From: Escherichia coli
Lineage (GTDB): Bacteria > Pseudomonadota > Gammaproteobacteria > Enterobacterales > Enterobacteriaceae
DNA length: 346 nucleotides
NCBI RefSeq assembly: GCF_003334335.1
Contig: NZ_QOWQ01000211.1
Strand: one strand, 5' to 3'
Positions 158 to 241 of the stretch are shown here, one piece after another (within the stretch, counting starts at the first letter, position 1; every line of letters begins with the position of its first letter). The translations under genes were made by a program, and so were the position numbers. The notes below the pieces were generated by a model that saw nothing but the letters and a program-made list of their open reading frames with translations, searched no databases and had not been told where the DNA came from.

Positions 158-219
158 TGCTACAAATCTACAGCTAAATAATACCCTGGTTGAGGCAAAT
201 TATTCGGTAATAAAAATTT

Positions 220-241
220 AAGGAGGCACAATAGCCTCCTT
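220..241. promoter_or_regulatory. Perfect 8-bp inverted repeat (stem-loop) pairing a consensus Shine-Dalgarno with its complement; function unknown
   Basis: 220-227 AAGGAGGC pairs perfectly with 234-241 GCCTCCTT; loop is 6 nt (228-233, ACAATA). On the + strand 219-226 reads TAAGGAGG, the full complement of the 16S 3' end, but no ATG/GTG/TTG follows within 5-12 nt. On the - strand the same SD is followed by TTG (231-229) and GTG (229-227). On either strand the SD would be sequestered by the anti-SD arm. On the - strand the stem is followed by AAAUUUUUAUUA, so the U-run is offset by 3 nt and it is only a weak terminator candidate. Confidence 0.4.

Follow-up and report, generated by a model that had tools for sequence, protein, structure and literature searches.

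A perfect 8-bp hairpin at a putative recombination junction in an Escherichia coli Eib prophage: a candidate intrinsic terminator on the minus strand

Hairpins resembling the one analysed here are known from several settings. In lambdoid phages, the late operon usually converges with leftward-transcribed DNA. Morons are reportedly cassettes with their own promoter and terminator that were inserted between phage genes, and the classical terminators of such cassettes lie downstream, on the strand of the moron. Intrinsic terminators of E. coli and its phages, including tandem, backup and convergent ones, have a stem of roughly 5-14 bp and a loop of 3-8 nt. In RNA thermometers and riboswitch expression platforms, a ribosome-binding (SD) sequence is sequestered by pairing with its complement in a short hairpin. 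Prophage small RNAs of the Hfq type (Pas, AgvB-like) typically have their own promoter, a defined short transcript, a conserved single-stranded seed and a terminator with a long U-run. The Pas small RNAs are encoded in lambdoid prophages near Q and the holin and end in an intrinsic terminator; the seed of PasA overlaps its own terminator stem, which is a precedent for a functional motif inside a terminator stem (bioRxiv 10.64898/2026.05.13.724894). STnc6030 of the Salmonella prophage BTP1 is an RNA antisense to tail genes and shows that such RNAs can matter, and accessory loci beside or antisense to lytic genes have been described (PMC7067206).

The hairpin under study, denoted T2, lies in a 346-nt stretch of E. 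coli DNA, which we call the window and whose positions are used below unless another locus is named. Functionally, T2 most likely resembles an intrinsic terminator; by position it resembles a cassette-boundary element, and it belongs to no curated RNA family. With intrinsic terminators it shares an 8-bp GC-containing stem and a 6-nt loop, a T-rich tract on the 3' side on one strand only, an A-rich run (GTGAA) 5' of the stem, a position at the end of an operon, and neighbours of the same kind in the same orientation. It differs from them in that its U-tract is interrupted (UU AAA UUUUU A UU), its stem is degenerate in most copies, and a transcription unit is neither annotated nor detectable on the minus strand. 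Like a moron boundary, T2 stands at the left edge of a highly conserved cassette, eib-orf156-orf60(-eaa), exactly where the identity between prophages jumps from ~70-76% to 97-99%. Unlike the classical moron terminators, it is located upstream of the cassette and points the opposite way. The lambdoid prophage context, a 3' stem-loop followed by a U-run, and a possible minus-strand RNA beside tail genes are in common with the Pas RNAs and STnc6030, whereas there is no sequence or Rfam similarity to either, and the genomic position is not that of the Pas genes. Finally, T2 resembles SD-sequestering hairpins in pairing an SD with its complement and differs from them in having no downstream ORF, no conserved pairing and no family match.

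The Eib prophage locus

The window comes from a lambdoid "Eib" prophage of E. coli. Using megablast, copies of 98-99.7% identity were found in 8 of 5426 complete E. coli genomes and copies of ~88% identity in 19 more. The window copies in complete E. coli genomes number 70 in total, every one of them chromosomal. A BLASTN search in distant mode limited the region to 27 of the 5426 genomes and 8 phage records, with no plasmid among the matches. GenBank record AF151091 (prophage P-EibA of ECOR-9) holds the same region, with orf-191A, eibA (immunoglobulin-binding protein), orf-156A, orf-60A and eaaA, and the region is also present in seven Escherichia phages of recent deposit.

The RefSeq gene order, all on the plus strand, is gpJ, a tail-fibre gene, the DUF4376 gene, an unannotated gap of ~680 nt, a YadA C-terminal-domain protein, a 156-aa hypothetical protein and an S6-family peptidase. 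The window spans the final 127 nt of the RefSeq "DUF4376 domain-containing protein" gene and the start of the ~680-nt non-coding spacer. The full 192-aa protein of this last tail gene matches phrog_1141, tail fiber protein, with an E value of 2.7e-78. The gene 3' of the spacer is eib, which encodes a YadA-like immunoglobulin-binding adhesin; upstream of eib, the spacer is 570-690 nt long and 97-99% conserved across paralogous cassettes. The hairpin thus lies in non-coding DNA, in the spacer that separates the late (tail) operon of this lambdoid prophage from the eib accessory cassette. The features of this part of the window are as follows.

1-127, plus strand: 3' end of the tail gene, annotated as a DUF4376 domain protein or tail fibre assembly protein, with the TGA stop codon at 125-127
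128-157, minus strand: hairpin T1, stem AGGGGC/GCCCCT (138-143 / 152-157) with an 8-nt loop, followed by CTCTTTTTTA and abutting the TGA stop codon
209-241, minus strand: hairpin T2, stem 220-227 / 234-241 (8 bp) with loop 228-233, followed by the tail AAATTTTTATT from 219 down to 209
258-283, minus strand: hairpin T3, stem GGGGAG/CTCACC (266-271 / 278-283), followed by G and T7 (264 down to 258)

Regulation of eib is poorly understood and is said to depend on IbrAB. A transcript map of the spacer was not found in the literature on eib, IbrAB and Pas. Closer to eib, at ~6667-6705 of locus L001 and ~100-140 nt upstream of the eib ATG, there is a long inverted repeat, GGAAATTCCGAA...TTCGGAATTTC, which the depositors of AF151091 labelled as a stem_loop. 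In the distant eib cassette L076, the equivalent position holds another inverted repeat, AAATCC...GGGATTT. The repeat ahead of the eib ATG could serve as a site of protein binding or as a conserved regulatory hairpin. On the other side of the spacer, an IS21-family element (ISSso4; istA/istB) occupies L002 3582-5889 in strain S1-CAM-02-A. It separates a complete DUF4376 gene from a second, truncated copy and lies just ahead of the region equivalent to the window.

Terminator-like hairpins on the minus strand

A repeat finder returned the T2 arms AAGGAGGC (220-227) and GCCTCCTT (234-241) as 100% complementary and 6 nt apart, with the loop ACAATA; the surrounding sequence is ...ATAAAAATTT AAGGAGGC ACAATA GCCTCCTT CACCCC... 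This bears out the exact 8-bp inverted repeat described in the first-pass annotation of this DNA, and the 8-nt SD at 219-226 (TAAGGAGG) and the A5 run at 212-216 were likewise found where it had placed them. With 5 G-C pairs among its 8 bp, a 6-nt loop and a folding energy of -13.7 kcal/mol, T2 fits the stem and loop dimensions of intrinsic terminators given above. The -13.7 kcal/mol applies to the hairpin alone on the minus strand, where the surrounding 46 nt fold at -16.8 kcal/mol (z -3.5); the stability on the plus strand is about -13.6 kcal/mol (z -2.95). When the window was shuffled 5000 times with its dinucleotide content kept, 2.8% of the shuffles had a perfect hairpin whose stem reached 8 bp or more and whose loop measured 3-10 nt, and so the perfect stem of T2 is moderately unusual for one window without being extraordinary, or an outlier, for a genome-wide scan. 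The hexamer AGGAGG was present on either strand in 15.7% of 5000 such shuffles.

The two strands differ in what follows the stem, a feature that the first-pass annotation had missed, as it had the two terminator-like sites on either side of T2. The T-rich tail AAATTTTTATT is 3' of T2 on the minus strand only, whereas on the plus strand the hairpin is followed by CACCCCTGTC; the corresponding T-scores of the tail are 0.93-2.46 on the minus strand versus 0.06 on the plus strand. We scanned the window for terminators, where a tail had to begin 0-2 nt past the stem and to have 5 or more T in 8 nt. Two sites were called, both on the minus strand, versus 0.2 expected in shuffles. One is T2, read as AAGGAGGCTATTGTGCCTCCTT then AAATTTTTAT, and the other is T1, read as AGGGGCTATGGCTTGCCCCT then CTCTTTTTTA (157 down to 138). 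The minus-strand tail of T2 satisfies the scan criterion, yet three A residues directly adjoin the full stem; with the two terminal A-U pairs assigned to the tail, the tract becomes UUAAAUUUUU. The d'Aubenton-Carafa terminator score, which was calibrated on old energy parameters, was negative even for the canonical neighbours. For this reason, only relative tail scores were used.

In order to compare T2 and its neighbours between related prophages, we used an invariant 26-mer located 42 nt to the right of T2 as anchor. This gave 61 copies, the window included, with the others coming from E. coli genomes, phage records, IMG/VR and metagenomes. All twelve stem positions of T1 are the same in both main alleles of the region, and its loop differs in sequence and length. 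On the minus strand, T3 reads GGTGAGCACGCACTCCCC then GTTTTTTT. The window form of T3 has one stem mismatch, at position 281 (A), and 46 of the 61 copies have the perfect CTCCCC; the corresponding stabilities are -3.8 kcal/mol for the window form versus -10.1 to -12.5 kcal/mol for the perfect form. Where its stem is perfect (e.g. L005), T3 is called by the terminator scan. In the long variant L005, all 5 of the 5 terminator-like hits are on the minus strand, versus 0.7 expected.

Many copies carry an insertion of ~115 nt just past the right end of the window (L005 2715-2835). It contains a fourth minus-strand terminator-like site, T4, consisting of GGGGAGCGTGCCGTCTCCCC then GTTTTTT, as well as a 9-bp perfect palindrome, ATGCAATAC...GTATTGCAT, and part of it is a duplication of the T3 unit and of the motif ACAGAATTTTCGTA. 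The hairpin cluster is bracketed by an imperfect inverted repeat of 22 nt (112-133 with 313-334, 73% complementary), which consists mostly of A-run and T-run sequence from the terminator-like sites; it is probably no independent feature.

The generality of T1 was assessed on 80 IMG/VR loci encoding relatives of the tail gene, which yielded 42 unique downstream sequences. A minus-strand terminator-like hairpin lies no more than 60 nt past the stop codon in 31 of these 42 sequences and a plus-strand one in 7, counts that do not represent independent events as the sequences are mutually related. The usual layout after related tail genes is a stop codon, an A-run and a GC hairpin. A non-homologous type of eib spacer (L152, L162) has two tandem minus-strand sites after the stop codon. 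In this phage group, the tail operon therefore ends as a rule with a stop that faces leftward, in keeping with the usual convergence of the lambdoid late operon with leftward-transcribed DNA.

We read T2, with a confidence that stops at an even chance, as a Rho-independent (intrinsic) terminator-type stem-loop of the minus strand that has a backup role and is located at a recombination junction. We infer from the hairpins and their setting that RNA polymerase moving leftward from the eib upstream region would meet T3, then T2, then T1, and would be released at these sites before antisense entry into the tail genes. T2 is the middle one of the three tandem minus-strand terminator-like hairpins, which number four in the longer variants. 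In the window allele, with T3 mismatched, the perfect T2 would be the effective stop; in the commoner allele, T3 is the perfect hairpin and T2 the degenerate one. The AAGGAGG / CCTCCTT makeup of the arms looks incidental under this reading, a mere purine-rich stem with no translational role.

The terminator reading is supported by the T-rich tail on the minus strand only, by T1 (138-157) and T3 (266-283), which are canonical sites of a GC stem plus T6-T7 on the same strand, by the minus-strand hairpins after related tail genes, by an allele B stem that has a G.U pair on the minus strand and a mismatch on the plus strand, by the lack of a conserved ORF or an Rfam match at T2, and by a perfect T2 that mostly accompanies a mismatched T3. 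The same-strand sites T1, T3 and T4 also lend indirect support to a minus-strand transcription unit. Several results count against the reading. Upstream on the minus strand, the search gave neither a gene nor an RNA, nor any convincing promoter. Within 150 nt of T2, promoter scores stayed below the scan threshold, and the sole candidate, TAGTCA-17-AATAAT, a 9-of-12 match ~300 nt upstream, is of a kind that occurs at chance rate. The U-tract is interrupted by three A residues directly after the stem, and for this reason the termination efficiency of T2 may be low. In 80% of the copies the stem is weakened and folds no better than shuffles. As regards the choice of strand, the stretch 208-340 folds with z -3.9 on the minus strand versus -4.9 on the plus strand; because both strands fold better than shuffles, folding statistics cannot pick between them.

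Alleles and the divergent patch

Among the 61 copies, 12 have the window form, allele A, which is AAGGAGGC-ACAATA (or AAAATA)-GCCTCCTT. The other 49 have allele B, AAGGAGAT-GCAACG-GCCTCCTT, whose left arm differs at two inner positions; 4 of these 49 are of the P-EibA type, with the right arm altered to GCCTCCTG. Strains with allele A include JNEC-KY176 and EC2, and ECOR-9 has allele B. No compensatory change in the T2 arms is found among the 61 copies, the changes being one-sided (GC to AT on the left, T to G on the right), and these copies offer just two main alleles and one right-arm variant. The first-pass annotation had named independent mutation of the two arms, with no preservation of pairing, as the observation that would speak against its view of the palindrome. 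This is the pattern seen here, with 49 of 61 copies changed on the left arm and a right-arm change confined to the P-EibA type.

The allele B stem is not the same on the two strands. With A in place of G in its left arm, the minus strand forms a G.U pair and the plus strand an A.C mismatch, such that 7-8 pairs are kept via G.U on the former versus 6 bp with the A.C mismatch on the latter. The centroid energies are -8.5 kcal/mol (minus) and -6.0 kcal/mol (plus), the MFE values are -9.7 and -6.1 kcal/mol, and neither fold is better than shuffles (z 0.16 and 0.66, respectively). Depending on how the G.U pairs are counted, the minus-strand stem ranges from 6 bp to 7-8 bp, with an energy between -7.7 and -8.5 kcal/mol, and a poor tail, TAATTATCATT, follows it.

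The difference between the alleles extends well beyond the left arm of T2, over the following feature.

106-233, no strand assigned: divergent mosaic patch, ~70% identical between alleles A and B, with near-identical DNA on both sides

In a pairwise mismatch map of A versus B, the 128 nt of the patch contain 36 mismatches and 10 gapped positions, versus 1 mismatch in 1-105 and 2 in 234-346; BLAST identity is 76% to the left of ~234 and 97-99% to the right of it. The patch reaches from the final 7 codons of the tail gene across T1 and the spacer into T2, of which it includes the left arm and the loop, and its right edge is the junction between the loop and the right arm. It looks like a small recombinational replacement that ended inside T2. 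The left arm differs between A and B at 2 of 8 positions, against a background of ~24-30% for the block. Because the left arm has diverged at this background rate, we see no sign of purifying selection on T2 pairing, and the alignment provides no evidence of selection for the full 8 bp.

T2 and T3 were then considered jointly. The counts among the 61 copies are 10 for allele A with mismatched T3, 2 for allele A with perfect T3, 5 for allele B with mismatched T3, and 44 for allele B with perfect T3. The association of a perfect T2 with a mismatched T3 would fit mutual backup, but it may come from plain linkage among related copies.

Two further observations concern palindromes near T2 or similar to it. 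Copies of the P-EibA type have a rewritten stretch of 25 nt to the right of T2 (~2605-2630 of L004, AF151091, corresponding to window 240-265), and the rewriting yields the perfect palindrome CCCTGTCAGGG, which suggests a template-switch (quasipalindrome) mutation in the spacer. At L076 2956-2995 (also in L082, L102 and L113), 35 nt past the tail gene stop, there is an element AAGGAG-20 nt-CTCCTTCAC. It does not align with T2 and has a T tail on neither strand; with an estimated ~3 chance matches in the scanned DNA, it could be either a chance look-alike or a remote relative of T2.

The allele data bear directly on a possible but rather doubtful alternative, according to which T2 is a neutral palindrome with no function at the RNA level that arose incidentally when recombination and quasipalindrome perfecting acted on a spacer rich in AT and in repeats. 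The edge of the patch exactly at the loop/right-arm junction favours this alternative, as do a perfect stem that is the minority allele (12 of 61) and arms that vary independently and at the background rate. The adjacent 25 nt rewritten to CCCTGTCAGGG in the P-EibA-type copies, and the equally good hairpins in 2.8% of shuffles, point in the same direction. Against it, the outer 6 bp and the T-rich minus-strand tail are retained in both main alleles, and pure neutrality would not account for the strongly strand-biased cluster of terminator-like hairpins. We keep the minus-strand terminator as the preferred reading.

Remaining alternatives and meaning

It is unlikely that T2 acts on the plus strand, as a stem-loop in a Q-antiterminated late read-through transcript that would serve as a 3' stability barrier or processing site after the tail genes. 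The flanking genes are all on the plus strand, and 128-346 folds on that strand as a row of local hairpins (z -4.08). However, the plus strand has no U-tract, the stem is too short for RNase III, and in allele B it has just 6 bp and contains an A.C mismatch (-6 kcal/mol, z 0.66); a 3' end of the late transcript is neither known nor predicted here.

A minus-strand RNA could also have a function of its own. In addition to the hairpins, the following structure is predicted.

245-334, minus strand: predicted helix of 334-324 with 255-245 (5 of 11 pairs G.U) and of GGAUAAAAA with UUUUUUAUC, enclosing T3 and with T2 directly after it

This helix forms on the minus strand only, and the plus strand folds at least as well into other hairpins. 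Together with T2, the helix 245-255/324-334 is predicted to make a compact structured RNA of ~120 nt. That the minus strand from ~334 down to 209 encodes an unannotated prophage small RNA, made of the G.U-rich helix, the perfect hairpin and the U-run, is a conjecture from folding models which we consider quite improbable. If it were true, the terminator stem would contain an SD mimic (AAGGAGG) and an anti-SD-like arm (CCUCCUU), and the RNA could, for instance, titrate 30S subunits or base-pair where ribosomes bind the mRNAs of eib or of the tail genes. The aligned copies hardly vary over positions 285-346 (two point differences, in L015 and in L007/L012), and conservation is thus uninformative. 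The first-pass suggestion of a structural element of a small RNA survives in a modified form, in which T2 is a plausible terminator stem-loop of a minus-strand transcript.

The remaining results concern translation. As the first-pass annotation had stated, the SD on the plus strand has no start codon and on the minus strand it precedes TTG and GTG at very short spacing. We found the next plus-strand ATG/GTG/TTG to be more than 40 nt away; on the minus strand, 3 nt separate AAGGAGG from the TTG and 5 nt from the GTG. This TTG opens an ORF of 23 codons (231..160), and the GTG opens only GTG-CCT-CCT-TAA, i.e. M-P-P-stop. Allele B lacks both the 3-codon and the 23-codon minus-strand ORFs and has TTG-CAT-CTC-CTT-TAA in their place, with a stop after 4 codons. 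No minus-strand ORF is conserved across the copies, each being broken by indels of ~115 nt and smaller. A test of T2 as an SD-sequestering hairpin found no real conserved ORF 5-10 nt past the SD on either strand and no retention of the pairing among the 61 copies. The small ORFs have no family match in PHROG.

Two longer ORFs in the region were considered and set aside. An 84-aa minus-strand ORF (L001 6218..6472), whose TAA at 220-218 overlaps the foot of the stem, was rejected as a protein gene on the grounds that the ~115-nt and smaller indels destroy its frame, its stop is missing in allele B, and a PHROG match is absent. A 55-aa plus-strand ORF annotated across the hairpin in phage PhiR12_1 is not present in the window allele, which has TGA TAA and other stops.

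The covariance search proposed in the first-pass annotation gave no meaningful hit, even at E <= 10. With Rfam 15, the best overlapping hit in the window was Plastid-psbA-2 (14.1 bits versus a gathering threshold of 55.8, E = 8), nothing reached E <= 1 in the surrounding 3.5 kb or in the long variant, and no RNA thermometer or riboswitch family matched the window.

Despite the consensus SD formed by AAGGAGG, the GTG 5 nt past it on the minus strand, and the location of the minus-strand 5' arm AAGGAGGC in a conserved block with its AGGAGGC core invariant in 61 of 61 copies, it is highly improbable that T2 is an SD-sequestering translational-control element, a ribosome-binding decoy or a 16S anti-SD mimic, given a plus strand with no start codon, minus-strand ORFs that are M-P-P-stop (GTG) or 23 aa at 3-nt spacing (TTG) and that are both missing from allele B, small ORFs with no protein-family match, pairing that differs between the alleles, and no thermometer or riboswitch family match. 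The claim that the SD/anti-SD pairing is non-incidental and marks translational control or a decoy is therefore not upheld: there is no ORF for it to act on, the changes are one-sided, the allele B stem is weak, and Rfam is empty.

We return to the minus-strand terminator as the main reading. T2 opens no new mechanism. If the reading is true, T2 would be one more unannotated, allele-specific intrinsic terminator, and its value would be mostly for annotation. It would also mark the left edge of the eib virulence cassette. T2 and its two or three neighbours would suggest leftward transcription from the conserved spacer that is kept out of the tail genes, and these tandem leftward stops would block STnc6030-like transcripts antisense to the tail.
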